From contig CAKUIA010000006.1 of assembly GCA_934660865.1 (NCBI GenBank), positions 60,001-92,000 of the forward strand: DNA of 32,000 bases, in the 5' to 3' direction. Each line of letters starts with the position of its first letter. The first letter of the stretch is position 1. The DNA comes from an uncultured Opitutales bacterium. GTDB taxonomy: Bacteria > Verrucomicrobiota > Verrucomicrobiia > Opitutales > Intestinicryptomonadaceae. A program made the translations under genes and the position numbers. The notes below the pieces were generated by a model, which saw only the letters and a list, made by a program, of their open reading frames with translations, was not told where the DNA came from and did no database searches. This document shows positions 10,725 through 31,734 of the stretch, one piece after another.

Positions 10725-11191
10725 AAGTTGTCGCAGGAATAGACTCGGGCGTAAACGGCGGAATTTGTGTGTTGTATCCCGACAAGGCGGCTTATACCGC
10801 CCCTGTCGGCAACATAACGGAACTTCGCGACATTTTGTCGGCGGCGAAAAAATACGCCGACGGGAAAGCCTACATTCTCGAATGTTTTGTCGAGGAAGTA
10901 ACGGGCTACATCGGCGGGAAACCGCAGCCTGCAAGCCGTTCGTTTGTCTTGGGCAAGTCATACGGTTCTATTTTGGGACTACTTGTCGGAATGGAAATTC
11001 CGTTCCGCACGGTGCGCCCGCAAAAGTGGCAACTGGGGATTTCGGGCATACGCGCCGTCGAATATACAGCAAGAAAACGCAGGTTGAAGGAAATCGCAAC
11101 CCAACGCTATCCGCACTTGAAACCTACGCTTAAAACGGCGGACGCAATTCTCATAGCCGACTACGGAAGGAGCGTCTGTCATGGAGCTTAG
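10721..11191 (+). CDS. RuvC-like Holliday junction resolvase
   Basis: ATGA overlap with the upstream gene. N-terminal VVAGIDSGVNGGICVL and C-terminal TADAILIADYG resemble RuvC/phage resolvase catalytic motifs. Confidence 0.7.
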   Translation: MKVVAGIDSGVNGGICVLYPDKAAYTAPVGNITELRDILSAAKKYADGKAYILECFVEEVTGYIGGKPQPASRSFVLGKSYGSILGLLVGMEIPFRTVRPQKWQLGISGIRAVEYTARKRRLKEIATQRYPHLKPTLKTADAILIADYGRSVCHGA

Positions 11192-14707: not shown

Positions 14708-14733
14708 TTACAATTTTCTCGGAATATCCCGAC

Positions 14734-14945
14734 GGTGAACGCGGTGAATTTAACAAAAAACCGTTCACCTTCACTGGTGAATGTGAATCTGTGAATCGCG
14801 GTTATTCACTTTCACCAACCCGCCACCCTGACAGTGAACTGGTGAAAGTGAACGTTATATATATCTTTAGATATATACGTTCTCGTTCACCATTCACCAG
14901 AGGTGGCGGGCGCGACTCGGAGTCATTTTCACCCCGCCGTTCACA
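14734..14945. repeat. Iteron array (16 GTGAA/TTCAC cores) around an AT-rich imperfect palindrome; candidate phage replication origin
   Basis: GTGAA starts at 14735, 14744, 14778, 14784, 14792, 14835, 14843 and 14849. TTCAC starts at 14765, 14770, 14805, 14811, 14886, 14893, 14928 and 14940. The AT-rich centre GAACGTTATATATATCTTTAGATATATACGTTC lies at ~14851-14883. It is flanked by the inverted pair CCCGCCACC (14819-14827) / GGTGGCGGG (14902-14910). Confidence 0.6.
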
Positions 14946-14966
14946 CTACCCGAAAGGAGGCGCGCG

Positions 14967-15488
14967 ATGAGCCGCTACGAAGAGCAATATCGCGCGTGGG
15001 TTGACAGCCTTTCGGACAAGCAACGCGCCAAGCTTAAAGCCAAGGGTTTGGACAAACCGCTCGACGACTTCAAACTGAACACGCCCGACTCGGACATAGT
15101 CTTTGCCAAAATGGGCGAAGAGTTCGACTACGACCAATTCGACGAGCGCGAAGCCTATGCCGAAATTGAAACTCTCGTCGAAGAGCGGGCGAAAGCCTAC
15201 GGGGCGCAGTTGCTTTCGTGGGTGTTTGCCAGACTACAAGCCCACAAGACTGCGCGAAGTGCCAGTATCGACCGCGACGCGCTTGTATTTGCGCTTGGTA
15301 TGGCGAGCCTCGAAGGCAGAACCGAAACCGCCATCGCCGCGCAATACGGCATTACGAAAGCGGCGTTTTCGGTTCGCGTAAAATCGTGGCAAAAGCTTTT
15401 GGGATTGTCGCCGTCGTCGTTTATGCGTAGCGAGAAAGCGTGTCGGGCATACCGCAATGCGCGGCTGAAAAATTTGACACGCCGCTAA
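14967..15488 (+). CDS. HTH protein resembling sigma-70 region 4 (putative phage transcription regulator)
   Basis: SD AAAGGAGG lies 6 nt upstream. Candidate HTH: GRTETAIAAQYGITKAAFSVRVKSWQKLLGL. Confidence 0.6.
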   Translation: MSRYEEQYRAWVDSLSDKQRAKLKAKGLDKPLDDFKLNTPDSDIVFAKMGEEFDYDQFDEREAYAEIETLVEERAKAYGAQLLSWVFARLQAHKTARSASIDRDALVFALGMASLEGRTETAIAAQYGITKAAFSVRVKSWQKLLGLSPSSFMRSEKACRAYRNARLKNLTRR

Positions 15489-15495
15489 TGGTATG
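15468..15495 (+). repeat. Junction motif copy: AAAAATTTGACA-N13-ATG (DUF3102 gene)
   Basis: TTGACA at 15474-15479, ATG at 15493. No SD. Confidence 0.4.
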
Positions 15496-16089
15496 CAGAC
15501 GCAACTTTCAATCGCTTCAAAAATCAACGAACTTTATACGCAAGCCGAGCAGTTCTCGAAACAGGCAAAGGATACAGCCTCGCAGGCAATATCCCTTGCC
15601 GTCGAGTGCGGCAGGCTTTTGAACGACCAAAAGAAAGCCGTCGGACACGGCGCGTGGCTTGGTTGGCTTAAAGAAAATTGCCCGAATATTTCCGAGAGAA
15701 CCGCGCAAAAGTATATGCGCCTTTCCCGCAAGGTCTGCGAGCTTGAAGACTCTTCAAAAACGAATACGGATTCGGATTTGCCGACTACATCTTCCGAAAA
15801 CGTTTCAAAGCTCCTCGACGGTTCGCCCAAGACTTTAACGCAAGCCTACATTGCGGCGGGGGTAATTCCAGAGCCGAAAAAGAATGAAGTAAACGCGGGT
15901 GTATCCGAGGCTACAATCACGTTTACGCGACATATCGACGCCCTTGTTCTTTGGTATAAAAAGCGCACCGAACACGACCCGATTGAAAATTGGCAGCCGA
16001 ATGTTCGCGGGCTTCTGATAAACGAACTCCGTCCGTGGGTGGAAATCTACAACGAACTTCTCGACCTACAAAACGGTGTTGACGAATAA
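15493..16089 (+). CDS. DUF3102-like protein
   Basis: The motif ECGRLLNDQKKAVGHGAWLGWLKENCPNISERTAQKYMRLS matches the DUF3102 pattern as I recall it (HG-W..WL ... S-RTAQ-YM). No SD; preceded by the TTGACA-N13 junction motif. Confidence 0.65.
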   Translation: MQTQLSIASKINELYTQAEQFSKQAKDTASQAISLAVECGRLLNDQKKAVGHGAWLGWLKENCPNISERTAQKYMRLSRKVCELEDSSKTNTDSDLPTTSSENVSKLLDGSPKTLTQAYIAAGVIPEPKKNEVNAGVSEATITFTRHIDALVLWYKKRTEHDPIENWQPNVRGLLINELRPWVEIYNELLDLQNGVDE

Positions 16090-16095
16090 TGCTTT

Positions 16096-16166
16096 TGCAG
16101 GGTGGTCTAACGGTAGGACATCGGGCTCATAACCCGAGGATTGGCGGTTCGATTCCGCCCCCTGCA
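16096..16166 (+). tRNA. Phage-encoded tRNA-Met (anticodon CAT) with initiator-like anticodon stem; no encoded CCA
   Basis: Hand-folded. Acceptor TGCAGGG/CCCTGCA (U1:A72). D-arm GTCT-AACGGTA-GGAC. Anticodon arm TCGGG-CTCATAA-CCCGA, with three consecutive G:C pairs as in tRNA-fMet. T-arm GGCGG-TTCGATT-CCGCC. Confidence 0.9.
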
Positions 16167-16170
16167 TTTT

Positions 16171-16608
16171 CTATTCTTCAATATATTTTCTTTTTCTTAA
16201 TTCATTAAATTCTAACTCAGTCCATGGTTTAACATAGAGCGATTTAATGTAGTTTGAATTTGTGTTACTTTCGAGATTATCAATAGCTTTAATAGAAATA
16301 TTCCACCCAATCGCAATATTTGCAGTGAGTGGAATCAATTTACCAGAGGCTAATTCCAGCGAAAAACGACCGATTTTAATTTTAGCTCCTTTTAATAATT
16401 TTTTAGAAAAGGTTGGGTCTATTTTGTTTAAAATATCAGAAATATCTGTTCCATCGAAATTTTTTTTGCTAGGGACTAAAAGTAGAATTTCTGCGATTTC
16501 TTCCCCTGGATTGTCTTCTTCAATCTTTTTTAGAATCTGTAACAAGTCGGTATAATTACCAGTACCAAAAGAACCATCACCTTTAAAAACAAATTTATTT
16601 ATAATCAT
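16171..16608 (-). CDS. Hypothetical protein (145 aa), AT-rich antisense insert (moron)
   Basis: ORF with SD AAAGGAA and its own strong promoter. It has low GC, lies opposite to the phage operons, and sits directly after the phage tRNA. No recognisable domain. Confidence 0.65.
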   Translation of the reverse strand: MIINKFVFKGDGSFGTGNYTDLLQILKKIEEDNPGEEIAEILLLVPSKKNFDGTDISDILNKIDPTFSKKLLKGAKIKIGRFSLELASGKLIPLTANIAIGWNISIKAIDNLESNTNSNYIKSLYVKPWTELEFNELRKRKYIEE

Positions 16609-16632
16609 ATAGTATTCCTTTCAATGTTTACA

Positions 16633-16662
16633 ATTGTAAAAAAGAAATCTATTATTTGTCAA
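16633..16662 (-). promoter_or_regulatory. sigma70-type promoter TTGACA-N18-TACAAT for 16171-16608, with a 14-bp perfect palindrome over the -10
   Basis: The minus strand reads TTGACA (16662-16657), an 18-nt spacer, then TACAAT (16638-16633). The palindrome TTTACAATTGTAAA (16627-16640) overlaps the -10 and could be an operator. Confidence 0.55.
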
Positions 16663-16719
16663 TAACATATAGCAGGGACGTTCGGCAGACCGCTTTCTTC
16701 TTACGACAGGTATTTTTTG

Positions 16720-16833
16720 AATTTCCCACTTTTTTTGAAATGGCAGGCTCGCAAGTGCCGTAAAATCGGTGTTTGCGGGCTTTTTTTATTGCGGGAAATC
16801 GGTGGGAAATCGGCAAAATATTTCCCACTTTTG
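16720..16833. repeat. Short repeats upstream of terS (candidate cosB/terS-binding sites)
   Basis: AATTTCCCACTTTT occurs at 16720-16733, and ATTTCCCACTTTT at 16820-16832. Tandem GGGAAATCGG occurs at 16793-16802 and 16804-16813. A related AAAATCGGTG lies at 16762-16771. GTGGGAAA is the reverse complement of TTTCCCAC. Confidence 0.4.
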
Positions 16834-16853
16834 ACAGTTTTCTTTCCTATATG
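16829..16853 (+). repeat. Junction motif copy: TTTTGACA-N14-ATG (terS)
   Basis: TTGACA at 16831-16836, ATG at 16851. No SD. Confidence 0.4.
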
Positions 16854-17465
16854 GACGAAAACATTAAAAACAGGATTCTTGAAGCCAATCTTCAAAATAT
16901 CGCAAAGAAAGTTGCCGCAGGGAAAACTCTCACAAGTTCGGAACGCGCGCTTATCGAAGTGCAAAACGGAGAATCCGAAATTAGCAAAACGTACGCCGAA
17001 TCCATCGTTGAACTTGCGGAGATTCTCGGCGTTTCGCGTAGAACTATCGGTAATTGGCGCAAAATCAAGGGCTCGCCCAAACCTACCGCGAACGGCAAAC
17101 ACAACATTTCCAAATGGCGGCAGTTCATCAAGAAGAACGGATTGAAAGAAGCTGATACCCCAGAAGACGAGGTTTTAAAGTCTCGCAAACTGCTTGCGGA
17201 AGTAAAACAGGCGGAAATAAAGCTGAAAGTGATGGAAGGCACTTATGTGCCGATTGAGAAAGTCCGCGAGGTTTGGACAATGCACATCGGGCAAATCAGG
17301 AACATTCTCGAGAGCCGATTTTTAAACGAACTTCCGCCGATACTTACCACACTCGACGCAATCCAGATTCGCGAGAAAATGCAGGAAGTTTTGGACGAGA
17401 CGTATTCCGCGCTTTCCGTCGCGGCAGAATCAATCAAAGAGCCTGTCGATATTGAAGAATCTTAA
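16851..17465 (+). CDS. Terminase small subunit, lambda Nu1-like architecture (N-terminal HTH plus coiled coil)
   Basis: I prefer ATG 16851 (MDENIKNR...). HTH: IVELAEILGVSRRTIGNWRKIKGSP. Then KWRQFIKKNGL, and a helical segment SRKLLAEVKQAEIKLKVMEGTYVPIEKV...ILESRFLNELPPIL that parallels Nu1 as I recall it. The call rests on motifs and architecture only. Confidence 0.55.
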   Translation: MDENIKNRILEANLQNIAKKVAAGKTLTSSERALIEVQNGESEISKTYAESIVELAEILGVSRRTIGNWRKIKGSPKPTANGKHNISKWRQFIKKNGLKEADTPEDEVLKSRKLLAEVKQAEIKLKVMEGTYVPIEKVREVWTMHIGQIRNILESRFLNELPPILTTLDAIQIREKMQEVLDETYSALSVAAESIKEPVDIEES

Positions 17466-17737
17466 TAGTCTTCTGGAAACAACATTGTAGTTGAGCTTCT
17501 GTCGGCTTCGGTGATTATCCAAATTTTCGTTTTGTCGGGAAGCTCGTATTGGCTTAGAAGCCGACGAGCATTTTTCAATGATTCGTAGTTTTCTTTCTTA
17601 TCCTCCTCGCATATCGAACCCCAATCGCAATTCGCGTGGCGCAATAGATATGGAAGCAGTAAAAACCTCTTTTCTTTGCAATAGTTGAAAAGCGTAGTTG
17701 TCGCAACAATCTGACCGAGTTCAAACTTTTGGTTCAT
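17462..17737 (-). CDS. Small conserved plasmid/phage protein (CDWG ... WIITEADRSSTT ... PEDY family, name not recalled)
   Basis: 91 aa. The motifs LRHANCDWGSICEEDKKENYESL and KIWIITEADRSSTTMLFPEDY match a family I remember from plasmids and ICEs near anti-restriction genes. It has its own consensus promoter. Confidence 0.7.
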   Translation of the reverse strand: MNQKFELGQIVATTTLFNYCKEKRFLLLPYLLRHANCDWGSICEEDKKENYESLKNARRLLSQYELPDKTKIWIITEADRSSTTMLFPEDY

Positions 17738-17777
17738 CGTATCTTACCTTTCCCTTCTGTTGGTTGTTTATCTTGTT

Positions 17778-17806
17778 ATTATACCATATTTTATGACAAT
17801 TCGCAA
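17778..17806 (-). promoter_or_regulatory. Leftward sigma70 promoter TTGCGA-N17-TATAAT
   Basis: The minus strand reads G-TTGCGA-ATTGTCATAAAATATGG-TATAAT. It drives 17462-17737 (SD GGGAAAGG). Confidence 0.6.
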
Positions 17807-17850
17807 CGGTTTTATTTGGCGTTTTTACGATAAAAAACCGAAGAAAAATG

Positions 17851-17879
17851 TTGCGAATATTATCCAACTATGTTATTAT
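17851..17879 (+). promoter_or_regulatory. Rightward sigma70 promoter TTGCGA-N17-TATTAT
   Basis: TTGCGA lies at 17851-17856 and TATTAT at 17874-17879. It is followed by SD AAAGGTAGG and ATG 17916. It shares the 9-mer GTTGCGAAT with the leftward promoter. Confidence 0.55.
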
Positions 17880-17915
17880 TAGCAACATAGACTAACAGGA
17901 ATAAAGGTAGGATAT

Positions 17916-18536
17916 ATGAATCAATACGATACAATGACAATCACCGAAGAACAGGCAAAACGCTACGAATTCCCCGCAAAGGCTGTCGGATATTGGGCGA
18001 TAATCGAAGAGACGGAAGAACAAATGGTTCTACATCGACTCACGAAAAGCGGGCAATTAGGAAGCGACAGACCGAACAATATCCTGAAAGTAAAAAAGCT
18101 CGATATTTCCGAAATATTCAAATCCGAGAAGTCCCAAGATGAAAAAGTATTAACCGCAAAGGCAAGCGACGGAAAAGAAGTTGTAATTGTTCGCAGTAGG
18201 ACTGTCGATATTTCCGACAACGCCGAAGAGCCGAAAATAGAAAACTCTCCCGAAGAAAACGTTAAGATTGACGAACCCTCCTCCGACAATAATTGGAGGA
18301 GTCTTAACATCGGAACAAGGAAATCCCGATGGATAGCGCAACTAATCGAGAAGATGAAATCAGAACCGTTCACTGGGCAATTCATTGAGAAAATCGGCGA
18401 GAGAAAATTTGTAGAACAGGTTTTGAAAGATACTGATTCCGAACGGGAATTCGGGAAAGCGTATAGCTCGATAGAAACGGCTATGAAAGTGTGGAATTCG
18501 AGAATCAGAAAGAATGTTGAATATGCCGTCAGATAG
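17916..18536 (+). CDS. Hypothetical acidic protein (206 aa)
   Basis: Good SD and promoter. The sequence is E/K-rich and protein-like. The antisense 217-aa ORF is Ser/Phe-rich junk. Confidence 0.7.
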   Translation: MNQYDTMTITEEQAKRYEFPAKAVGYWAIIEETEEQMVLHRLTKSGQLGSDRPNNILKVKKLDISEIFKSEKSQDEKVLTAKASDGKEVVIVRSRTVDISDNAEEPKIENSPEENVKIDEPSSDNNWRSLNIGTRKSRWIAQLIEKMKSEPFTGQFIEKIGERKFVEQVLKDTDSEREFGKAYSSIETAMKVWNSRIRKNVEYAVR

Positions 18537-18882
18537 ATTTTTCCACATTCTTTGCACCGACGGCGAGAAAGTCCGCTATGAGGGGCGATTCCAATGCTCG
18601 AGCCGAAATGTTGCATACCGACTCTTGCGCGAAAAAGTCGGCAAAAAGAACCTCTACGGACTCAAATACACCATCACTGAATTCCCAATAGAAGTTCTTC
18701 GTGAAATTATAGATTCAATTCTGAATAAAAGACCTCTGCCCGAGGGAGATATTTTAAAGCACAAGACGGTTCAAAGCCCACCGAAACAGCCTCCACAAGT
18801 CTACGCAAATGTTAAAGATATGCGGTATAATCCACACAAGCCGACTCGCTCGACGGTAAAAAGGCGATTGGGGGATTTATGA
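18514..18882 (+). CDS. Hypothetical protein (122 aa)
   Basis: Overlaps the upstream gene by 23 nt. Its stop overlaps the next start (ATGA). No recognised domain. Confidence 0.6.
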   Translation: MLNMPSDRFFHILCTDGEKVRYEGRFQCSSRNVAYRLLREKVGKKNLYGLKYTITEFPIEVLREIIDSILNKRPLPEGDILKHKTVQSPPKQPPQVYANVKDMRYNPHKPTRSTVKRRLGDL

Positions 18883-19295
18883 AATACCTTCTCGACCTAA
18901 ACCAGACGCTTGTCGACCGCGAGAAAGACGCGCCGAGAATACGACCGTTTGAGCGTCAAATAGAACGCGAGACATACCGCCAGTGGCTCGTTGAAATCTT
19001 GCGGGATAGCTATGTAATCCTGATAACGGCGCGCCCCGTAAAATACAAACAAATGACGCTCGAACGGATTTTGGCTCTCACAAATTGGCAGCCTCGGGAA
19101 GCATATTTCGCGGAAATAAAAACGCTCCCGCACCTAAAAAAAGAATATCTCTTGCGCAAATACATACTTCCAAGATTTAAGCCCGACGAACTTTTCGGAA
19201 TAGAAAGCAACCCCAAAACCCGCACGATATATTCAAATTACGGAATTGCGTCCGCTCCCGCCATCGACGAAAACGGCGTTAAAATATCGCTTTAA
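18879..19295 (+). CDS. Conserved hypothetical protein, paralog A (weak HAD-like motifs)
   Basis: 138 aa. The sequence MKYLLDLNQTLV ... RQIERETYRQWLVEILRDSYVILITARPVKYK ... FGIESNPKTR is, by eye, more than half identical to 21449-21883. DLNQT resembles HAD motif I (DxDxT), with Asn at the second acidic position. Confidence 0.7.
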   Translation: MKYLLDLNQTLVDREKDAPRIRPFERQIERETYRQWLVEILRDSYVILITARPVKYKQMTLERILALTNWQPREAYFAEIKTLPHLKKEYLLRKYILPRFKPDELFGIESNPKTRTIYSNYGIASAPAIDENGVKISL

Positions 19296-19321
19296 TTTTG
19301 ACACTTCCGCCGTTATATATG
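19294..19321 (+). repeat. Junction motif copy: AATTTTGACA-N15-ATG (ParB-like gene)
   Basis: TAATTTTGACACTTCCGCCGTTATATATGG. Near-identical to the copy at 22712-22741. Confidence 0.45.
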
Positions 19322-19957
19322 GCAGAAGACAAAGCACGCATTTTGGCGGACGGAATTGAAGTTTGGTGCGCCTACGACAAACTCGTAAAGGTTGACGAAC
19401 TTATTCCCCACCCGAAAAATCCCAACACCCACCCGCAAAACCAGATAAAGATTCTGGCGCAGAATATCCGCTACCACGGTTGGCGGCACCCGATTGTGGT
19501 TTCAAAACTTTCTGGCTACATTGTGGCTGGACACGGCAGACTCGAAGCCGCGAAAGAATTGGGCGTTTCAATCGTCCCCGTAGAATTTCAAAAATTTTCT
19601 TCCGAAGACAACGAACTTGCCGTTCTTGTCGGCGACAACCGCTTGGCGGAGCTTTCGAGCATAGACCTAAACGGGCTTCAAGACATCGTAGACGGTTTCA
19701 AGGAGACGAGCTTCGATACAATCTTGGCAGGTTTTGAACCAGCCGATTTGGACGCTCTGCTTGACGAAAAAACTCCCGATTTTGAAGACGAAGCCGAAAG
19801 GGAGCTTACCCAATCGGAAGTTACAATTCAGGCTGGGAACTATCGATTCCGCATAAGTCAGGAAGATTTCGGTGTATGGATTGACAAATTAAAGCAGGAA
19901 GTCGGCTTCGACAAGGAATCGGTAATTGCCGAACTTCGCAGGAGGCTTTCCATATGA
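19319..19957 (+). CDS. ParB-like N-terminal (ParB/Srx-fold) domain protein
   Basis: I prefer ATG 19319 over the TTG 19298 in the track. ParB-like core: ELIPHPKNPNTHPQNQIKILAQNIRYHGWRHPIVVSKLSGYIVAGHGRLEAAKELG. No SD; preceded by the junction motif. Confidence 0.8.
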   Translation: MAEDKARILADGIEVWCAYDKLVKVDELIPHPKNPNTHPQNQIKILAQNIRYHGWRHPIVVSKLSGYIVAGHGRLEAAKELGVSIVPVEFQKFSSEDNELAVLVGDNRLAELSSIDLNGLQDIVDGFKETSFDTILAGFEPADLDALLDEKTPDFEDEAERELTQSEVTIQAGNYRFRISQEDFGVWIDKLKQEVGFDKESVIAELRRRLSI

Positions 19958-21465
19958 TAAAAATTGAGCCTCTTTCGGCGGTAAACCCGTCGACCTACAA
20001 CCCGCGAACCGCCGACCCGAAGCGGCTTGATTTGATTGAGCTTTCGCTTCGCAAATTGGGATTCATTGCGCCGATATATGCCGACGCAAACGGCGAAATT
20101 CTTTCGGGGCACCAACGCCATTTTGTGGCAACGCGAATGGGCGTAAAAAACGTTCCAGTTTTCAGGATTCCGCCGATGGAATTGGAGAAGCGCAAGGCGT
20201 TGAACATTGTCTTTAACCGCGCCACTAACGACGGCGACATTTGCCAGACACCAGAAAAGGCTAAGCGCATTCTGGAAAGTCTAAATCTCTCGGAACTCGC
20301 CGAAAATATTCAAGACAAGGAGTTGGAGAGCAGAGACTTTTTCAGATGCGCCTACCCTGCGAAGGTGTCGGTTGCAAAACTTTGCAGGATAAATTCGGGA
20401 CGATGGATTCAATACGCAAAGAGCATTGCCAGAACACTTCGCAAGGCTGGAATTGTTATGCCGATTGTCTGCACGCCAGACGGCAAAGTTATAAACGGAA
20501 TCGGAAGACTCGAAATGCTTGCCGAACTCAAAGTAGATACTTGCGATGTGGTCTACATTTCCGAAGACGAGGCGAAATTTGCCGACGCTATGATGAACCT
20601 GCTTACGATGGAGTTCGACATTCACACGCGCTACGCCGATTTGCTCCGCTATAATTCGTTCCGACGCGCCCGCAGAGTTCGCGAAGAATTGGGACACGGC
20701 TTTGTGTTCGCCGTTCACGGGAATAAGCCCTGCCACAGTTTCGATATTTTCGATAAGTCGCAACAGGCGAAATGGCGCAAGGAGCACGGAAATTCAATTC
20801 TCGACTTCGGCGCGGGACACCTTACGGAGACGAACATTTTGAAGTCTGCGGGCTTTGATTGTGTTCCGTTTGAGCCGTATCACATAAGCGTTTCCGAAAT
20901 CGACAAGGAAAAGTCGCTTGAGATTTCGAGGGAATTTCTAAACGCCGTCGCAAATGGCAAGGAATTTACAAGCATATTCATTTCAAGCGTGTTAAACTCA
21001 GTTCCTTTCGCAAGGGATAGAGAACACATAGTTTGCATTTGCGCCGCGTTGTGTCGTCCGTTTACAAAACTCTACGCCTGCGCTTCGTCGACGGCAGAAA
21101 CCGGTTATAGGCAGGTAAACGGCAAGGCATTTCATAATGAATCGAATGCGGGCAATATAGCGTTTCGCCTTGAATACGAATCGGGAGTTCGCATTGGCGA
21201 CTTTCAGGACAAGCCGAAAGTCCAGAAATACCACACAAAAAAGGAATTCTACGAACTCTTTTCGCCGTTTTTTAGAAACATTCAGATTTCGGAAATGACG
21301 GGCAACGTAAACGCCAAATGCGAAAACGTCAGACGCATTCCGTGGGAACGCCTCGAAGAAGCGTTGAGATTTGAATTCAATCTGCCTTATCCCGACGGCT
21401 CTCGTATGGGATTGGTAGACGAGGCAATTTCGGCATTCAAACACCGCTATGAAATACTTGGTTGA
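19954..21465 (+). CDS. Fusion protein: two ParB-like domains plus a C-terminal class-I SAM-dependent methyltransferase domain
   Basis: First ParB-like domain: NPRTADPKRLDLIELSLRKLGFIAPIYADANGEILSGHQRHFVA. Second, degenerate copy: MPIVCTPDGKVINGIGRLEMLAELK. Methyltransferase motif I ILDFGAGHLTE, then FEPY and IFISSVLNSVP. No (D/N/S)PP(Y/F) amino-methyltransferase motif is seen. Confidence 0.8.
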   Translation: MIKIEPLSAVNPSTYNPRTADPKRLDLIELSLRKLGFIAPIYADANGEILSGHQRHFVATRMGVKNVPVFRIPPMELEKRKALNIVFNRATNDGDICQTPEKAKRILESLNLSELAENIQDKELESRDFFRCAYPAKVSVAKLCRINSGRWIQYAKSIARTLRKAGIVMPIVCTPDGKVINGIGRLEMLAELKVDTCDVVYISEDEAKFADAMMNLLTMEFDIHTRYADLLRYNSFRRARRVREELGHGFVFAVHGNKPCHSFDIFDKSQQAKWRKEHGNSILDFGAGHLTETNILKSAGFDCVPFEPYHISVSEIDKEKSLEISREFLNAVANGKEFTSIFISSVLNSVPFARDREHIVCICAALCRPFTKLYACASSTAETGYRQVNGKAFHNESNAGNIAFRLEYESGVRIGDFQDKPKVQKYHTKKEFYELFSPFFRNIQISEMTGNVNAKCENVRRIPWERLEEALRFEFNLPYPDGSRMGLVDEAISAFKHRYEILG

Positions 21466-21883
21466 TTTAAACTATACGCTTGTTGGAAATTCCCCGAGAT
21501 GGGGAGAACCGCGCATTACGCCGTTTTCAAGGCAGATTGAGCGGGAGACATACCGCCAGTGGCTTGTGGATTTCTTGCGGGATAAATACGCAATCCTCAT
21601 TACTGCGCGACCTGCCAAATACAAAGAACAAACGCTTGCGAGGATTTTCTCTCAGACAAATTGGCACCCGCAGGAAACATATTTTGCGGAGATTTCCGCT
21701 ACTCCACCCGAAATCAAAGAAGACCTATTGTTGCGGTATATCTTCCCGAAACACGGCAAAAATGGCGCGGATTTCTTCGGCATTGAAAGCAATCCGAAAA
21801 CGCGGGCAATGTATGGAAAACATGATATAGAATCGCTATGTTTTGCCGATTTTAAGAAACAAACCGTTGACAAATTCGGATAA
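21449..21883 (+). CDS. Conserved hypothetical protein, paralog B of 18879-19295
   Basis: 144 aa: MKYLVDLNYTLV ... RQIERETYRQWLVDFLRDKYAILITARPAKYK ... FGIESNPKTR. It shares a 20-nt identical DNA stretch (GAGACATACCGCCAGTGGCT) with paralog A. Confidence 0.7.
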   Translation: MKYLVDLNYTLVGNSPRWGEPRITPFSRQIERETYRQWLVDFLRDKYAILITARPAKYKEQTLARIFSQTNWHPQETYFAEISATPPEIKEDLLLRYIFPKHGKNGADFFGIESNPKTRAMYGKHDIESLCFADFKKQTVDKFG

Positions 21884-22066: not shown

Positions 22067-22714
22067 ATGAATTCTTCGCTCATACTTACTGGCTATCACG
22101 GTTGCGATATAACTACGGCATATGACGTTGTTCTGGACGGACGTTTGAATCCGAGTCGAAACACATACGACTGGCTTGGGAATGGCGTTTATTTTTGGGA
22201 AGACGATATTGAAAGAGCCTATGACTGGGCAAAATACGTTTCGGCGAATCCCAAACTTTTTCACAACAAAATAGAACATCCTTGTGTTGTCGGCGCGGTA
22301 ATCGAGTTGAAAAACCATCTTGATTTGACTATTTCAAGCGCAAGGCAGGTCGTAAGAGAAGCATACAACAACATTTCGGAAATCTACGCCGAAAAGGGTT
22401 TGGAATTGCCCAAAAATCGCAAATCGTCAAAAGGCGATGACTATTTGAAGATTCGCGAACTCGACTGCTTGGTTATAAATTCGATAAACGAGTTTAGAAA
22501 AGCCAAGAAAGAACCGCTTATTGATGTCGTTCGAGCTCCGTTTTTGGAGGGTGAACCTCTATACGCAGGGGCTTCTTTTATGAACGAGACTCATATCCAA
22601 ATTTGCGTAAAAGATCTCTCCGCAATTAGGGGATATTTTATTCCGCCGCAATTCAAGAGTATGTTTAAGAACGCAAAAATTCCGAATTGGGATAAGGTTC
22701 TCGGGGAATATTAA
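22067..22714 (+). CDS. DUF3990-like protein (unknown function)
   Basis: 215 aa. The ordered motifs GYHGC, DWLGNGVYFWEDDIERAYDWAK, IDVVRAPFLEGEP and ETHIQICV resemble the DUF3990 pattern I recall (YHGS ... DFGxGFY ... A..WA ... D-h-V-x-G-P ... QI). Confidence 0.55.
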   Translation: MNSSLILTGYHGCDITTAYDVVLDGRLNPSRNTYDWLGNGVYFWEDDIERAYDWAKYVSANPKLFHNKIEHPCVVGAVIELKNHLDLTISSARQVVREAYNNISEIYAEKGLELPKNRKSSKGDDYLKIRELDCLVINSINEFRKAKKEPLIDVVRAPFLEGEPLYAGASFMNETHIQICVKDLSAIRGYFIPPQFKSMFKNAKIPNWDKVLGEY

Positions 22715-22740
22715 ATTTTGACATTCCGCCGTCTTGTATG
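22713..22740 (+). repeat. Junction motif copy: AAATTTTGACA-N14-ATG (CmoA-like gene)
   Basis: TAAATTTTGACATTCCGCCGTCTTGTATGG. TTGACA at 22718-22723, ATG at 22738. Confidence 0.45.
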
Positions 22741-23433
22741 GAATTGCATACGGACGACAGGATTATTTCGCGACAGAGCAACTGGGTGTTCGACGAACAC
22801 GTCGCGCCCGAATTCGACAAGCACGTCAGAAAGAGCGTGCCCAATTACGTTCACGTTCAGGATTTGGCGGAGACATTTTCCGACTGGTTCACATACCCCA
22901 ATTCGACTGTAATCGACTTCGGGGCTTCCACAGGCGAAACCCTGCGCAGGATAAAACGCCGCCATTCGAAAACGATCCACCTCATAGGCTACGACAATTC
23001 GCAGGCGATGATAAATCAGGCGAAAACAAAAGGCGTAGACATCATTTTTGCCGACCTCGAAAAGCCGTTTGTTCTGCCCAATTTTTCCTACGCAGTTTCG
23101 CTTTACACATTGCAATTCCTGCGCCCAGACGCGCGGAACGCGCTGTTAAAGCGCATATTCCACAGCCTTGAAAATTGCGGCGGAATGTTTGTCGTCGAAA
23201 AAGTTCTCGGCTCAACATCGCAAATGCAGGACATTTTGCAACAGCTCTATTGGGAAATGAAGGCAAAGAACGGCTTTTCGTCAGAACAAATCATCAACAA
23301 GGCGAAAGCCCTGCGCGGGTGTATGTATCCCAAAACCGTAGCCGACAACGAAGCGGAATTCCGCGCAATCGGGTTCAATTCGGAAATAGTTTTCAAAGAA
23401 TCGCAGTTCTGCGGTTGGCTGCTTACGAAATGA
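22738..23433 (+). CDS. CmoA-family SAM-dependent enzyme (carboxy-SAM synthase-like)
   Basis: 231 aa with end-to-end similarity to E. coli CmoA as I remember it. Matching segments: NWVFDEHVAPEFDKHVRKSVPNY, VIDFGASTGE, GYDNSQAMINQAK, YTLQFLRPDARNALLKRIF, GGMFVVEKV, KAKNGFSSEQII, and the final FKESQFCGWLL. Its stop overlaps the terL start (ATGA). Confidence 0.75.
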   Translation: MELHTDDRIISRQSNWVFDEHVAPEFDKHVRKSVPNYVHVQDLAETFSDWFTYPNSTVIDFGASTGETLRRIKRRHSKTIHLIGYDNSQAMINQAKTKGVDIIFADLEKPFVLPNFSYAVSLYTLQFLRPDARNALLKRIFHSLENCGGMFVVEKVLGSTSQMQDILQQLYWEMKAKNGFSSEQIINKAKALRGCMYPKTVADNEAEFRAIGFNSEIVFKESQFCGWLLTK

Positions 23434-25211
23434 AGCTTCTTCGGGATATTCTCAAAGACGCTTGGACGCCCGCCGACCGCCGAGAGCCTTGGCGTTGGTG
23501 CGAAGACCATATAAAAAGCATTCCGTATTCGCCGCTTCCAGGACCGTTCAGAAGCGAAAACTCGCCGTGGATTCGCGAAGTTATGGAGGCAATCGTTGAC
23601 CCGAAAATCCGCCTTGTCTCGATTATCGCCGCCGTCCAAAGCTCGAAGACTACAAGTCCCGAGCTTACGCTTTGCTACATAATAGCCAACCTCCCAGGAC
23701 CTTGCCTTTGGCTCGACCAGACGGACGAAGACGCAAAAGACGAGTCGGAAAGCCGCCTGCAAAAGCTTTTTGAGAGCTGCGAGCCGGTAAAAAAGCTATT
23801 TCCAAAGAACAAAAATAAACAGCGCAACTGCACAATCCACTTTTCAAACGGAATGACGCTTTGGCTGCTGGGAGCGTATAACAAGACCAATCTCCAACGC
23901 CGTTCAATCCGCTGGCTTTTCGGAGACGAAACTTGGCGATGGCCAGTCGGACATATGGCGGAAGCGGAGGCAAGAACTACGGCTTTCGGGTGGCTCGGCA
24001 AATGCGTGTTTATGAGTCAAGGCGGAGAGGAGAACGACGACACCCACCGCAAATTTGAAACAACCGATATGCGCGAATGGCACTACAAGTGTCCCAAATG
24101 CGGCAAATACATTCCCTACAAGTGGGAAAACATCGAGTGGGACGACGACTGCAAAGACGAAAACGGCGAATACGACTTTTCAAAAATCAACCATTCAACA
24201 GCCTTGAAATGTCCCGAATGCGGGGAGTATTTTGAGGATTCCGACAGAATGAGGCGCATTCTCAACAAGGACGGAAAGTTTATCGCGCTCAATCCGAATG
24301 CTTCAAAAGAAAACGTGGGCTTCCATTGGAATGCGCTCGCTTCGATGAGTTGGGGCAAGCTTGCCGAGCTTTACCTTCGCGCGAAAATTGCCGCAAGAAA
24401 GGGCGACAGCTCTTTGCTGCAACAATTCTACCAGAAACGCCTTGCTCTTGCTTGGAGGGAATTTGCCGAAGACTACCGCCTTGAAATCGCCTCTGGCAGC
24501 TATAATTCGGGGGACGTTTGGGATGAGGAAGCGGGCTTCAACAAGCTCGGTGAAATCATCGCCCCGCCTTTTGCCGAAAACGAGGTTATCGCGCCGCTTC
24601 GCATAATGTCGGTTGATGTTCAGATGAACTGCTTTTACTTGGTTGTCCGCGCTTGGAGCATTAACGGTTCGAGTCGTCTTCTATGGCACGAAAAGGTACT
24701 GACGTGGGAAGACATCGAGGAAATCCAAAAGCGTTTTAAAATTTTGGACAACCTTGTATTTGTCGACGCGGGGTATAATTCGTTTGAAGTCTACAAGCAT
24801 TGCGGGGAGCGGAATTGGATTGCGCTTATGGGCGACAACAGGGCGAACTTCTTTCACAGACTTCCGAACGGCAAGACGGTTTTGCGCTTTTACTCTCCCG
24901 TAAAGCACATATTTATTTCGCGCTACGTTAAGTGCCGTATGCACTTTTGGAGCAACCTCAACGTAAAAGACACTTTGGCGAGAATCAGGCGAAACCAGAA
25001 TCCTGCCGACGGCGCAACTTGGGAAGTGCCGACGGATATTTCCGAAGACTACTTAAAGCAAATGGAGTCCGAACACCGCATTAAAAAGGGCAACTCGTGG
25101 ATATGGGAGCAAATCGGCAACCGCCCCAACCACTACCTCGACTGCGAAGCTATGAACTGCGCAGGAGCGTTGATGTTGAAGATTGTGGGGAACAATGGTT
25201 TATATAGTTAA
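23430..25211 (+). CDS. terL: Terminase large subunit, lambda GpA family
   Basis: Start ATG 23430 (MKLLRDILKDAW...). The upstream ORF extension overlaps the CmoA-like gene and is rejected. GpA-type features: REPWRWCEDHIKSIPYSPLPGPFRSENSPWIREVMEAI, an ATPase segment AAVQSSKTT, and a zinc-ribbon YKCPKCGKY ... LKCPECGEYF. Confidence 0.9.
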   Translation: MKLLRDILKDAWTPADRREPWRWCEDHIKSIPYSPLPGPFRSENSPWIREVMEAIVDPKIRLVSIIAAVQSSKTTSPELTLCYIIANLPGPCLWLDQTDEDAKDESESRLQKLFESCEPVKKLFPKNKNKQRNCTIHFSNGMTLWLLGAYNKTNLQRRSIRWLFGDETWRWPVGHMAEAEARTTAFGWLGKCVFMSQGGEENDDTHRKFETTDMREWHYKCPKCGKYIPYKWENIEWDDDCKDENGEYDFSKINHSTALKCPECGEYFEDSDRMRRILNKDGKFIALNPNASKENVGFHWNALASMSWGKLAELYLRAKIAARKGDSSLLQQFYQKRLALAWREFAEDYRLEIASGSYNSGDVWDEEAGFNKLGEIIAPPFAENEVIAPLRIMSVDVQMNCFYLVVRAWSINGSSRLLWHEKVLTWEDIEEIQKRFKILDNLVFVDAGYNSFEVYKHCGERNWIALMGDNRANFFHRLPNGKTVLRFYSPVKHIFISRYVKCRMHFWSNLNVKDTLARIRRNQNPADGATWEVPTDISEDYLKQMESEHRIKKGNSWIWEQIGNRPNHYLDCEAMNCAGALMLKIVGNNGLYS

Positions 25212-26437
25212 ATAATTTCTCCTCGAAAATAATCTTTTATTATTTTTATATATTTATTTGGGATTCCTAGCCTTTCTCTAAACAAATTTTTCACAGGTAC
25301 AGGATTTGGATTTAATATGATTATATTTGGATATTTAGTCTTTTTGCAAAAAGCCTTTTTTAATAAATCAATTGCTCTTATATCAGTGATGGGGAAAGAG
25401 TATCCAATTACATATATTGATTCTGCTTTACTTAAATCAGATTCAGCATATTCCCATAAATTTTTAAATAATTTGCCCCAAAAATTATAACTTTTATTTT
25501 TGACTGGAGGGATAATCAGTGGAGTACTTGGCATTCCATCACTAGGATAATTACTTTCAGGAATCCAAGGAAATTTCGGTCTTACCCTGATAATAAGCCG
25601 ATCTTTAGGTGCTGTTTTTCCTTTGTCTGATAAAATATTTGGGGGATAATATCCCATAGAAAAAGGAGCATATCCTTCCATATATCTACCCGCGTACGCA
25701 GGATAAGGTTTAGTTGCGTATTCATATATCCAAACTGAATCATTTGGAGATTCTTGTATTAGTTTAAAATCTTTTGCTTCTTGATCATAGTACATAGGAG
25801 AAGTGAGCCAATTTGTTGAGCCATGTAACTTTATTAATTTTGGGGATTGTTTGAAGCTGTTTTGAGGCAACAGCCATTTATCTCGATATATACCACAAGG
25901 CGAAAAACCATATCCAAAGTCTGTTTCCCAATCAGTATCTTCTTGTAAGGCTCGATCCAATAAAGTATCCCAATTAAATGTTATTATAGTATCATCTGTA
26001 TTTATTTTTTTTAAAAATAATCTATGTGCTTTTGATGTTGGTCCATTTTGAATTTCATTTATAATCGATGAAAAAAAATAAACCAATTGTTGATAAGTTT
26101 TTGTCAATATAAGCAACTCGCTGGAAATATGTTCGCAATTTTGATCCTTTTCAATTAAGGTAAGCATTTTATATTCAATCGCAGAGTGAATTTTCTCAAT
26201 ATCTAAATCTCCTTTAAAAACTGATTCGATAGGAACATTTCTGGTCTTATGTAAATAATTCACGATGTCACCGATTATAACCCAAGGGTTTTGTGATATA
26301 TTTAATTTTTCAAAGGTAGAAAAAACCTCTGTTGCCAATGGCATTTTTTGACCAGATAAGGATTCACCATAAGACTTAGATGCTCCAGCTCCCAATATAT
26401 ATACATTCATTTCATTATTTAAGTTCAATGGATACAT
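25208..26437 (-). CDS. SIR2-like (SIR2_2 / ThsA-type NADase fold) protein, standalone, AT-rich insert
   Basis: Ordered signature: VYILGAGASKSYG; IITFNWDTLLDRAL; LIKLHGSTNW; IYVIGYSFPITDIRAIDLL. The start is ambiguous (ATG at 26485, 26437 or 26410). There are 20 G+C in line 25261-25320. Confidence 0.8.
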   Translation of the reverse strand: MYPLNLNNEMNVYILGAGASKSYGESLSGQKMPLATEVFSTFEKLNISQNPWVIIGDIVNYLHKTRNVPIESVFKGDLDIEKIHSAIEYKMLTLIEKDQNCEHISSELLILTKTYQQLVYFFSSIINEIQNGPTSKAHRLFLKKINTDDTIITFNWDTLLDRALQEDTDWETDFGYGFSPCGIYRDKWLLPQNSFKQSPKLIKLHGSTNWLTSPMYYDQEAKDFKLIQESPNDSVWIYEYATKPYPAYAGRYMEGYAPFSMGYYPPNILSDKGKTAPKDRLIIRVRPKFPWIPESNYPSDGMPSTPLIIPPVKNKSYNFWGKLFKNLWEYAESDLSKAESIYVIGYSFPITDIRAIDLLKKAFCKKTKYPNIIILNPNPVPVKNLFRERLGIPNKYIKIIKDYFRGEII

Positions 26438-26451
26438 GTAAATTACTCGAA

Positions 26452-26480
26452 TTTTTTTGACAAGTTTTATTCTTATCATG
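26452..26480 (+). repeat. Junction motif copy: TTTTTTTGACA-N15-ATG (gpW-like gene)
   Basis: TTGACA at 26457-26462, ATG at 26478. No SD. Confidence 0.4.
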
Positions 26481-26735
26481 TCCAATTACATTTACACACG
26501 CGGGTATACTGTGGCGGAGCTTGAGGCTTTGCTTGTTCGGGTAAAAGCCGAGCGCGAAAAGTATCTTCAATCGGCTTCCGATAGCGGAAGCTCGTATTCA
26601 CGCATCGCGCTTTCGGAAATCGAGAAGAAGTTCAACGGCATAATGGACGCGTTGGAGCTTCTCGCGCCCGAAAAATACCCCAAAACAAACCGCCGAATTT
26701 CCCTTAGCGGCGTAGTAGGAGGAGTTATCCAATGA
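26478..26735 (+). CDS. gpW-like head-tail joining protein (by position and size)
   Basis: 85 aa from ATG 26478. It lies between terL and portal, as lambda W does. Its stop overlaps the portal start (ATGA). No SD; the junction motif lies upstream. Confidence 0.5.
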   Translation: MSNYIYTRGYTVAELEALLVRVKAEREKYLQSASDSGSSYSRIALSEIEKKFNGIMDALELLAPEKYPKTNRRISLSGVVGGVIQ

Positions 26736-28147: not shown

Positions 28148-28961
28148 CATTTTTCTAAACGGCATTTGCAGACCGTGGAATATCCACGCTGGAACGTTTC
28201 TTGCGCTTTCGCTTAGAACACTTGCGGAGGCTTCGGGCGGAAATTCACTCGAAACTTGGCGGGAGAAATTCTCGCAATTCGTCCCGCAACGAAGCCCGCT
28301 TTCAATAGACGAAAACGGAATTGCGCATATTTCAATTCACGGAACGCTTTTCAACAAGGAAGCCCCGTATTTTGTGGCGGGCTACGGCGGAACCGACTAC
28401 GCGGAAATTCTGCGCGACATCGAAACCGTTTCCGAAAAAGCGAAAGCGATTTTCCTGAAAATAGATTCTGGCGGCGGGCACGCCTGCGGGAACGACAAAG
28501 TGGCAAAAGCCGTTTCGCAGTGCGCAAAGCCCGTATTCGCCTACACCGACGGAATGTGCTGCTCGGCGGCATACGCGATAGCTTCGGGCGCGTCCTACAT
28601 CTGCGCTTCGGCAGATTCAACCGTTGGCAGTATCGGAACAATTCTTCCGCTAATGGATGTTTCGGGGCTTTGGCAGTCGCTCGGGATAAAGCCCGACTAC
28701 ATCACAAACCGCGAGGGAACGCTCAAAACGGCGGGCTATCCGCCGAGCCAGAACGAAGCCGAACGCGCCGCCCTGCAAGCCGAAACGCAGGAGTATTTCG
28801 AGCTTTTCAAATCGCACGTTTTGGCAAACAGGCAAATTGCAAATGATGATATGCGCGGACAGGCGTTTGTGGGCGCTGATGCGTTAAAGCACGGACTTGT
28901 AGACGAAATCTGCGACGAAAAAACCGCCTACAATAAACTCAAAATTTTGACAACTTGCTAA
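28137..28961 (+). CDS. Head maturation protease, S49 (SppA/ClpP-fold, lambda gpC-like)
   Basis: IFLKIDSGGGHACG ... AYTDGMCCSAAYAIASGASYICASADSTVGSIGTI contains the S49 serine motif. It overlaps the portal end by 11 nt. Confidence 0.88.
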   Translation: MTNNIFLNGICRPWNIHAGTFLALSLRTLAEASGGNSLETWREKFSQFVPQRSPLSIDENGIAHISIHGTLFNKEAPYFVAGYGGTDYAEILRDIETVSEKAKAIFLKIDSGGGHACGNDKVAKAVSQCAKPVFAYTDGMCCSAAYAIASGASYICASADSTVGSIGTILPLMDVSGLWQSLGIKPDYITNREGTLKTAGYPPSQNEAERAALQAETQEYFELFKSHVLANRQIANDDMRGQAFVGADALKHGLVDEICDEKTAYNKLKILTTC

Positions 28962-28969
28962 GAAGTATG
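28941..28969 (+). repeat. Junction motif copy: AAAATTTTGACA-N14-ATG (scaffold gene)
   Basis: TTGACA at 28947-28952, ATG at 28967. It lies inside the 3' end of the protease gene. Confidence 0.4.
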
Positions 28970-31332: not shown

Positions 31333-31734
31333 TTACAAAAACTCCAACGCTTCGGCGGGAGAAAGAACCGTTATGCCGAGCTTTTTCATAAGCGGTTTGG
31401 GATAGTGTTTTGCATTTCCCGTAACGATTATTTTATCCTGCGTTGCAAGTGCCGCTTCTATGAAAATTTTGTCGTCAATATCGGGAAGTTCTTCGGAAAT
31501 ATGCACGGGTTCTATCGGGTCAGTTCCCATTAAATCCACAAGAAATATGTTTACGCATTCCTCGGTGAGGTGAAATCGCGGGCGGGACAAAACTTCGAGA
31601 TATTCGCAGATTATTCGGTTGTCGTAAACCGCTGTAAAATTTTCGCCCATTTTCGACATCAGCAAATGCGGCGAACCGTTTGTGCTCAAAAACGCCGAAA
31701 CAACGACATTTGTATCAATTACAAAAGTCTTCAT
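31333..31734 (-). CDS. PIN-domain toxin (VapC-like, PIN_3 type)
   Basis: The N-terminus MKTFVIDTNVVVSAFL holds the first acidic PIN residue. Later motifs: DIDDKIFIEAAL and IIVTGNAKHY. It overlaps the upstream antitoxin by 4 nt. Confidence 0.85.
   Translation of the reverse strand: MKTFVIDTNVVVSAFLSTNGSPHLLMSKMGENFTAVYDNRIICEYLEVLSRPRFHLTEECVNIFLVDLMGTDPIEPVHISEELPDIDDKIFIEAALATQDKIIVTGNAKHYPKPLMKKLGITVLSPAEALEFL

Follow-up and report, generated by a model that had tools for sequence, protein, structure and literature searches.

A prophage gene for a probable carboxy-S-adenosylmethionine synthase is linked to a ParB-fused protein with a methyltransferase fold, a candidate user of its product

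Why would a phage carry a homologue of CmoA, whose product, carboxy-S-adenosylmethionine (Cx-SAM), was long thought to serve nothing beyond the modification of tRNA wobble positions and a handful of natural products? This question is raised by a gene in a 32,000-nucleotide stretch of DNA from an uncultured Opitutales bacterium (contig CAKUIA010000006.1, positions 60,001 to 92,000), referred to here as the window, which contains a prophage of a gut Verrucomicrobiota host. A first-pass annotation had suggested that the phage may use an analogue of S-adenosylmethionine (SAM) to modify its DNA with a group other than methyl, and had noted that no natural phage system of this type was known to be described. 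The second statement was superseded in December 2025 by publication of the CmoA-CmoX-CmoY system and of 5-carboxymethylcytosine (Yang et al., Nat Commun, PMC12783734), and the general concept of phage Cx-SAM for DNA modification is thus already published. In that system, the Cx-SAM made by CmoA of Synechococcus phage S-B43 is used by CmoX, a homologue of C5-cytosine methyltransferases, to produce 5-carboxymethylcytosine, to which CmoY ligates glycine. Thousands of CmoA/CmoX clusters were reported, the sequence sets comprising 5,615 CmoX and 4,257 CmoA proteins, and ParB-domain proteins were present on many of the CmoX contigs (PMC12783734). The first suggestion was the best-supported reading of the present locus, backed by the assignment of the gene to the CmoA family and by synteny with a candidate user of the cofactor. 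Two features carry this reading.

22738-23433, + strand: CmoA-like gene, 231 amino acids (aa), predicted Cx-SAM synthase of the phage CmoA family, on the basis of TIGR00740, 4GEK, phrog_4752 and active-site residues.
19954-21465, + strand: P503, a 503-aa protein with two ParB_N-like domains and a C-terminal class-I SAM-methyltransferase fold; candidate user of the CmoA product.

The translation of 22738-23433 was read directly and contained every motif string on which the initial CmoA assignment had been based. The proposed whole-length match was confirmed with the NCBIfam model TIGR00740, in which residues 10 to 225 of the protein aligned with positions 9 to 233 of 239 (E = 1.8e-38, 132.6 bits), the next family, BioC, reaching only 1e-8. 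A search of PDB sequences gave three CmoA/YecO entries (4GEK, 4IWN and 1IM8) as the best matches, with unrelated entries appearing from ∼1e-4. The Escherichia coli CmoA entry 4GEK matched at an E value of 9.3e-26 over residues 10 to 220 with ∼31% identity, and Haemophilus influenzae YecO (1IM8) matched at 8e-22. Among phage families, phrog_4752, which is labelled as a tRNA methyltransferase and consists of phage CmoA homologues, matched at 1.8e-58, with residues 9 to 231 corresponding to positions 6 to 238 of a 241-position profile. Pfam searches detected the generic Methyltransf_25, Methyltransf_12 and Methyltransf_11 domains and no CmoA-specific match. Profile and PDB sequence searches therefore both placed the protein with CmoA and not with generic methyltransferases. 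The closed-lid architecture of CmoA, including the N-terminal and lid helices, was matched end to end at the sequence level, and the matches to solved CmoA structures settle the fold. These results supported the assignment of the prophage gene to the CmoA family.

The closest match in the phage collection of GenBank, MT835562.1 (an unverified entry named Bacteriophage sp., with 38% identity; L003), was dropped as a phage comparator. In this entry, the CmoA-like gene lies within positions 10974 to 21541 amid two PEMT-like methyltransferases, two saccharopine-dehydrogenase-like proteins and two ABC exporters, and because of these neighbours it looks like a bacterial Cx-SAM-using biosynthetic cluster and not a phage.

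In order to examine the active site, residues of the CmoA-like protein were compared with the cofactor contacts of E. coli CmoA described by Byrne et al. (PMC3663124), in which Arg199 forms a salt bridge with the carboxylate of Cx-SAM. E. coli residues Y39, D62, G64, S66, D89, N90, D117, F137 and E164 corresponded to Y37, D60, G62, S64, D86, N87, D106, F127 and E154, respectively. The adenosine, ribose and methionine contacts were thus retained, the sole change being N132 to L122. The first-pass alignment of E. coli SQKRSMLENV with INKAKALRGC was confirmed, and the position of Arg199 is occupied by Ala189. An arginine, R193, is however found at the position of E. coli residue 203, one helical turn after 199. 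The helix pattern K-R-x-x-L-E was present in the E. coli and H. influenzae enzymes and in one group of phage proteins, while K-x-x-x-L-R was present in the CmoA-like protein and its relatives, in Staphylococcus phage CmoAs adjoining C5-methyltransferases and in a protein of Synechococcus phage S-B05. The last of these is 100% identical to the CmoA of phage S-B43 (SpCmoA), which makes Cx-SAM in vitro (PMC12783734).

Among 113 aligned relatives, R199 with E203 was found in 68 and R203 without R199 in 41, a group that includes the proven synthase SpCmoA; four proteins had neither arginine and none had both. This exchange argued for selection on an active-site arginine, as expected of a conserved charge facing the pocket. 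The carboxylate-binding arginine has probably not been lost but has shifted by one helical turn, with R193 taking over from E. coli R199. The earlier caveat that the missing arginine might denote an ordinary methyltransferase was resolved by the same K-x-x-x-L-R arrangement in the validated SpCmoA, and it no longer counts against the CmoA assignment. Overall, the sequence comparisons make it quite probable that the 231-aa protein is a Cx-SAM synthase.

The candidate user of this product was examined by profile and structure searches. The description of 19954-21465 as a class-I domain fused to two ParB-like domains was borne out by an AlphaFold2 model (mean predicted local distance difference test [pLDDT] score of 84) and by Foldseek. 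The N-terminal half of the model matched Noc/ParB CTPase domains, and the C-terminal half matched class-I methyltransferases of small molecules, among them XrdM, glycine-sarcosine N-methyltransferase (GSMT), ToxA and DhpI. Pfam matches to ParB_N and Methyltransf_23 were both weak, and the catalytic domain had no match to amino- or C5-DNA-methyltransferase families in Pfam or Foldseek searches. Over its full length P503 corresponds to phrog_5475 (E = 3.5e-102), a family with no assigned function, and a search of viral folds in BFVD produced ParB-domain matches only, with no full-length counterpart. The family comprised ∼199 clusters at 50% identity (E ≤ 1e-30), and 286 stretches in IMG/VR encoded a relative. 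A motif-I sequence DFGAGH, E307 and an SVLNSxPF segment were invariant, as were H289, N348, D355 and R356. As first proposed, the Pfam scan of window open reading frames (ORFs) detected no methyltransferase other than the CmoA-like protein and the P503 domain. The small-molecule class-I methyltransferases COMT and CNMT accept Cx-SAM, and a single introduced arginine raises their selectivity for it (PMC7496830); by analogy with such enzymes, which the C-terminal fold of P503 resembles, acceptance of Cx-SAM by P503 is chemically plausible.

Two P503 genes had unusual structures. A distant homologue of 891 aa (L129, 6001-8676) had a LAGLIDADG_3 match, which suggests that it may carry an intein or a homing-endonuclease insertion. 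In one prophage of Puniceicoccaceae bacterium Marseille-Q1082 (L115, 7973-9497), the P503 gene is split into two overlapping ORFs by an apparent frameshift; the gene in the other prophage of this bacterium (L117) is intact.

The linkage between these genes was determined in loci fetched from P503, from the CmoA-like gene and from individual distant homologues and annotated with custom profiles. The P503 set consisted of 76 distinct full-length loci with flanks of 6 to 10 kb, and 74 of these had at least 2 kb of downstream DNA. A CmoA-like ORF was located downstream of P503 in all 74, with a median gap of 436 nucleotides (nt), and a HAD-like gene was present in 72. A C5-methyltransferase-like gene was found in only one, the prophage of Ruficoccus sp. 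ZRK36. Starting from the CmoA-like side, a P503 gene was detected in ∼20 of the 22 loci with at least 4 kb of upstream DNA. The cassette order was also observed in a Vibrio prophage, there without the HAD-like gene, in another, distant prophage locus (L034), in a terminase-free integrative element from a cyanobacterium, and beside a 32%-identical P503 homologue whose CmoA has a SpCmoA-like K-E-K-D-L-R helix. These data provided strong backing for the initial link between the CmoA-like gene and the ParB-fused class-I domain.

The CmoA partners fell into three lineages that are only 25 to 34% identical to each other, while the adjacent P503 proteins are 53 to 67% identical to that of the window. 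Because of this difference, the pairing appears to have outlasted a marked divergence, or an exchange, of the partner, as one would expect if one protein supplies a cofactor and the other uses it.

These results suggested a mechanism in which the CmoA-like enzyme would act as the cofactor supplier of a conserved, late-expressed cassette encoding ParB, P503, a HAD-like protein and CmoA. The enzyme would convert SAM and host prephenate into Cx-SAM and phenylpyruvate, with R193 as the carboxylate-binding arginine. P503, tethered to DNA via its ParB domains, would then transfer the carboxymethyl group from Cx-SAM to phage DNA shortly before packaging by terS/terL. The outcome would be an anti-restriction mark distinct from the 5-carboxymethylcytosine made by CmoX. 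Synthesis of Cx-SAM by the 231-aa enzyme is, from its sequence, a well-supported step of this scheme. Use of Cx-SAM by P503 is suggested by gene linkage and fold, and phage DNA as the acceptor is suggested by the ParB domains, by the neighbourhood of terS/terL in the late operon and by analogy with CmoX. For the whole reading, a functional Cx-SAM synthase feeding P503, which modifies phage DNA before packaging, we see an even chance.

Several observations weighed against this reading. The score of the CmoA-like protein, 132.6 bits, lies below the curated equivalog cut-off of TIGR00740 (193.3 bits). This cut-off does not discriminate among phage enzymes, since the scores are just 115.6 bits for the validated SpCmoA and 155 to 166 bits for the Staphylococcus phage CmoAs encoded next to CmoX. 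The N132 contact is a leucine, as it likewise is in SpCmoA. The evidence for this protein consists of its homology, its conserved residues and its gene linkage. The strongest warning against Cx-SAM chemistry throughout the cassette is that the small methyltransferase of the Vibrio-type and L034-type cassettes has no arginine at position 199 or 203 and no TLQF motif; given this loss, the chemistry of the cassette may not always involve Cx-SAM. For P503, no DNA-methyltransferase motif such as DPPY or PCQ was recognizable, and its cofactor could also be SAM. Since the folds closest to it belong to enzymes with small-molecule substrates, P503 could act on a nucleotide, metabolite or protein instead. 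The linkage also had exceptions. Two CmoA-like loci had no P503 gene within 5 to 8 kb upstream, one at a prophage edge or remnant (L116) and one in a rearranged genome (L121), and two distant P503 homologues (30 to 35% identity) had no CmoA-like gene within 6 kb. Furthermore, the locus counts overstate how many independent events there were, since most of the loci belong to a small number of related clades of phages.

Some of these observations would fit other explanations. Cx-SAM could be made for a purpose other than P503, either feeding a CmoB-type tRNA carboxymethyltransferase of the host (cmo5U34) or draining SAM against those host defences that depend on it, in the manner of phage SAM lyases. 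Synthesis of tRNA cmo5U with CmoB is the ancestral role of CmoA, the Discussion of Yang et al. (PMC12783734) considers that phage CmoA might also deplete SAM as a side function, and the two CmoA-like loci without P503 would be consistent with either use. No CmoB-type match was, however, detected among the window ORFs scanned against Pfam, leaving the earlier alternative of a retargeted host tRNA modification without support in the window, and unrelated products would hardly explain why ParB-domain proteins stay linked to the CmoA-like gene in 74 of 74 loci and across such divergent lineages. We consider this explanation unlikely. A CmoA-like protein that is an ordinary SAM-dependent methyltransferase and makes no Cx-SAM, in a cassette performing plain methylation or unrelated chemistry, would account for the score below the cut-off, for the absence of Arg199 and Asn132 at their aligned positions and for the Vibrio-type and L034-type partners, and a weak PADLOC match to mad2, a methyltransferase-like defence component, would agree with it. 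Both substitutions are nevertheless present in SpCmoA, which has an even lower TIGR00740 score, and the end-to-end closed-lid architecture and the exchange of R199/E203 for R203 argue for a selected active-site arginine in a CmoA enzyme, making an ordinary methyltransferase quite improbable.

The published system itself could also be present, with the gene for a CmoX-type C5 carboxymethyltransferase that uses the Cx-SAM lying in a part of the prophage not covered by the 32-kb window, and P503 an unrelated ParB-methyltransferase. The tail and lysis end of the prophage lies beyond the window, a C5-methyltransferase-like gene is located between ParB and P503 in the prophage of Ruficoccus sp. ZRK36, and ParB-domain proteins accompany many CmoX genes (PMC12783734). 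Against this, cmoA was located beside or within one gene of cmoX in characterized or annotated phages (S-B05/S-B43, Staphylococcus phage vB-SscS-F1 and an SPbeta-like phage), and a C5-like ORF occurred in only 1 of the 74 cassette loci within the flanks fetched. No CmoX was detected anywhere between host grpE and the head genes, a span that includes the replication and early regions: none of the scanned sizeable ORFs of the window had a Pfam DNA_methylase match, tblastn with CmoX/C5-like queries gave no match, and a hidden Markov model (HMM) of four CmoX/C5-like sequences gave none even at E ≤ 10. This explanation is very unlikely. The reading in which the CmoA-like enzyme supplies P503 remained the one best supported by these comparisons.

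The link of a CmoA synthase to an uncharacterized ParB-fused methyltransferase, and not to the known cytosine enzyme, suggests a second, undescribed system. We put forward tentatively, as a proposal more apt to fail than to hold, that P503 (phrog_5475) founds a second and evolutionarily unrelated class of natural Cx-SAM-dependent nucleic-acid carboxymethyltransferases, modifying a position other than cytosine C5. If so, an undescribed DNA modification would reside on a portable four-gene cassette in prophages and integrative elements of Verrucomicrobiota, cyanobacteria and Vibrio. No description of this cassette (CmoA with a ParB-fused non-C5 methyltransferase fold and no CmoX) was found in the literature searched. 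The locus places the same cofactor synthase in a different, widespread cassette without a C5-methyltransferase homologue, and use of Cx-SAM by P503 would provide a new natural nucleic-acid modification and anti-restriction strategy, as well as a new carboxymethyltransferase scaffold for DNA labelling. The hypothesis is directly testable because the cultured Puniceicoccaceae bacterium Marseille-Q1082 has two such prophages, one with a disrupted P503 gene.

The order of the block in the window was a HAD-like gene (18879-19295), ParB_N (19319-19957), P503 (19954-21465), a second HAD-like gene (21449-21883), a variable slot and the CmoA-like gene. The remaining features of the cassette and the late block are as follows.

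16773-17465, + strand: small terminase homologue (terS), phrog_57 (E = 9.8e-16); its start opens the late block that contains the cassette.
18879-19295, + strand: second HAD-like copy, 138 aa, upstream of ParB and 57% identical to the 144-aa copy.
19319-19957, + strand: stand-alone ParB_N-domain protein, 212 aa, the first conserved gene of the cassette (Pfam ParB_N, 3e-7; phrog_498 and phrog_620).
21449-21883, + strand: HAD-like protein, 144 aa, phrog_32036 (E = 5.5e-37), between P503 and the CmoA-like gene.
22067-22714, + strand: variable-slot accessory gene, 215 aa, outside the conserved cassette (phrog_14664; weak PADLOC match to PD-T4-9_A, E = 4.5e-6).
22716-22740, + strand: element TTTTGACA-N14-ATG before the CmoA-like gene, with a copy at 19296-19321 before ParB.
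23430-25211, + strand: large terminase (terL) of the gpA type (Pfam GpA_ATPase, 1.9e-39; GpA_nuclease, 2.3e-20).

The ParB gene, which is kept upstream of P503 in related loci, was assigned the ATG at 19319 as its start (212 aa, as in the gene call of L001, a 97%-identical metagenomic contig); the ORF list begins at a TTG at 19298. The two HAD-like genes share a direct repeat of 173 nt, D1, with 76% DNA identity. Invariant motifs of the HAD-like protein were DLNxT, T52, K90 and ESN. Alignment by hhalign with a protein having a precomputed HAD_PNKP Pfam match gave a probability of 73%, which hints that the HAD-like protein may act on phosphorylated nucleic-acid ends or nucleotides. Pfam produced a weak NIF match in 1 of 10 members, and a search of PDB sequences with the HAD-like profile gave no match. 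The AlphaFold2 model, built from an alignment of close homologues alone, had a pLDDT of 45 and was too poor to use. In the sister clade, the first HAD-like position holds a 276-aa N6_Mtase-like half-protein, apparently without the catalytic NPPY half.

The variable slot of L001 contains a RelB/PemK toxin-antitoxin pair in place of the 215-aa gene. A 97%-identical copy of the 215-aa gene was present in an Opitutia metagenome-assembled genome (MAG) (L116, 7253-7897) beside a CmoA-like gene and directly adjoining host genes. The 215-aa gene was ruled out as terS, being a phrog_14664 variable-slot gene, with the terS homologue located elsewhere. The initial placement of the CmoA-like gene between terS and terL was consequently correct in a loose sense only: terL is adjacent, and terS lies 5.3 kb upstream. 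The terS of the window is homologous to the gene between the CmoA-like gene and terL in the sister clade, and a terminator-like site with a 16-bp stem (16745-16782) is located just upstream of it. The overlap of the CmoA-like TGA with the terL ATG was read directly as ATGA at 23430-23433, and the terL start at this overlap was supported by the independent gene call in L001. The overlap was found in only some close relatives and is thus not a conserved feature.

The sequence preceding the CmoA-like gene had been described as a junction element of ∼28 bp shared with the ParB gene. The repeat is real: its two copies, at 19296 and 22716, are the sole occurrences of TTTTGACA-N0-1-TTCCGCCGT, against 0 expected by chance; it is, however, one case of a wider start-of-gene motif. 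This motif, TTTTGACA-N13-15-ATG(G), preceded five gene starts on the + strand of the window (16831-16853, 19298-19321, 22718-22740, 26457-26480 and 28947-28969), namely, those of the terS-like, ParB and CmoA-like genes, an 85-aa gene before portal and a 134-aa gene after the protease. The form TTTTGACA-N13-15-ATG was located upstream of every CmoA-like gene examined in both clades (L001, L002, L009 to L017 and L021 to L031). No Shine-Dalgarno sequence was evident at the ParB and CmoA-like genes, the two that were checked; neighbours such as P503 have AGGAGG. On the + strand of the window, six of nine TTGACA sites were followed by an ATG within 8 to 18 nt, and a role of the TTGACA element as a sigma-70 -35 box was ruled out because it lies too near the ATG. 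A scan of 16.5 to 23.6 kb for sigma-70 promoters and terminators detected sites no more numerous than in shuffled sequence.

Host grpE (884-1615, - strand) lies at the left end of the window, indicating that the window starts in the chromosome and then enters the prophage. It is followed by replication genes (AAA_24, exonuclease, helicase and PriCT-2 primase) and then by the cassette block, terL, portal and an S49 protease. The closest genomic relatives were the two prophages of Puniceicoccaceae bacterium Marseille-Q1082 (93 to 94% identity) and Opitutales MAGs, one of them from the Hadza gut (97%). Between terL and portal, a 425-aa SIR2-like gene (25208-26485, - strand; weak Pfam SIR2_2 match, PADLOC SIR2 at 2e-10) looks, from these matches, like a prophage-carried defence gene; a 97%-identical relative has a different, 114-aa gene at this position. 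Four large ORFs between 1.7 and 7.9 kb had no Pfam or PADLOC match, and a PIN_3-domain gene (31333-31734, - strand) is located among the head genes on the opposite strand.

Two further observations concerned enzymes related to the published system. Of 39 loci of the sister clade, 20 had an Amidoligase_2 gene (PF12224) on the opposite strand, 3 to 5 kb upstream of the cassette (e.g., L002, 2262-3086, - strand; L075; L084); the gene was absent from the clade of the window, and no CmoY or Amidoligase_2 homologue was detected in the window. By analogy with CmoY, the sister-clade enzyme could amidate a carboxymethyl group, which we regard as a lead only; if the proposed modification exists, it might further elaborate the mark in some clades. 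In Ruficoccus sp. ZRK36 (L002, CP080649.1), the C5-methyltransferase-like gene at 6846-7898 is inserted between ParB and P503, and its product has a FAGIGG motif, an unusual motif IV (SCPCPPFS) and a Cys-rich insert, with a UDG-family gene nearby.

Of the known systems compared, the S-B43 CmoA-CmoX-CmoY system has the same presumed purpose as the cassette. Both have a phage CmoA homologue with the K-x-x-x-L-R arginine placement and an S-L-x-TLQF motif, ParB-domain proteins nearby and a presumed role for Cx-SAM supply in phage DNA modification. The CmoA-like protein is, however, only ∼24% identical to SpCmoA, and the window lacks both CmoX (SPPC, R350) and CmoY, the asparagine-synthetase-like ATP-dependent amide ligase. 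The transferase candidate is instead a small-molecule-type class-I fold with two ParB_N domains, and a HAD-like member is conserved. With the bacterial CmoA/CmoB pathway for tRNA cmo5U34, the locus shares full-length homology (∼31% to E. coli CmoA) and the same cofactor-contacting residues; it differs in the replacement of Arg199 by alanine with an arginine at the E203 position, in the change of Asn132 to leucine and in its location in a phage late operon by the terminase genes and not beside cmoB.

CmoA homologues also function in the natural-product pathways of TglE/TglF (3-thiaglutamate) and MccS (microcin C) (PMC10491745). As is proposed here, a CmoA-family Cx-SAM synthase is paired in these pathways with a dedicated carboxymethyltransferase that does not act on tRNA, but the partners are CmoB-like and act on peptides or nucleotide antibiotics, whereas the candidate partner in the prophage is a ParB-fused domain in a packaging-proximal module. 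Phage DNA methyltransferases are often fused to ParB domains (phrog_498; PMC12783734), and the setting of the cassette is in this respect in keeping with a role in DNA modification. P503 resembles such enzymes (phrog_498 type; PADLOC MTase_II) in having an N-terminal ParB_N domain, a SAM-binding Rossmann domain and a location near terminase genes, and differs from them in having two ParB_N domains and, in 74 of 74 loci, a CmoA-like companion gene.

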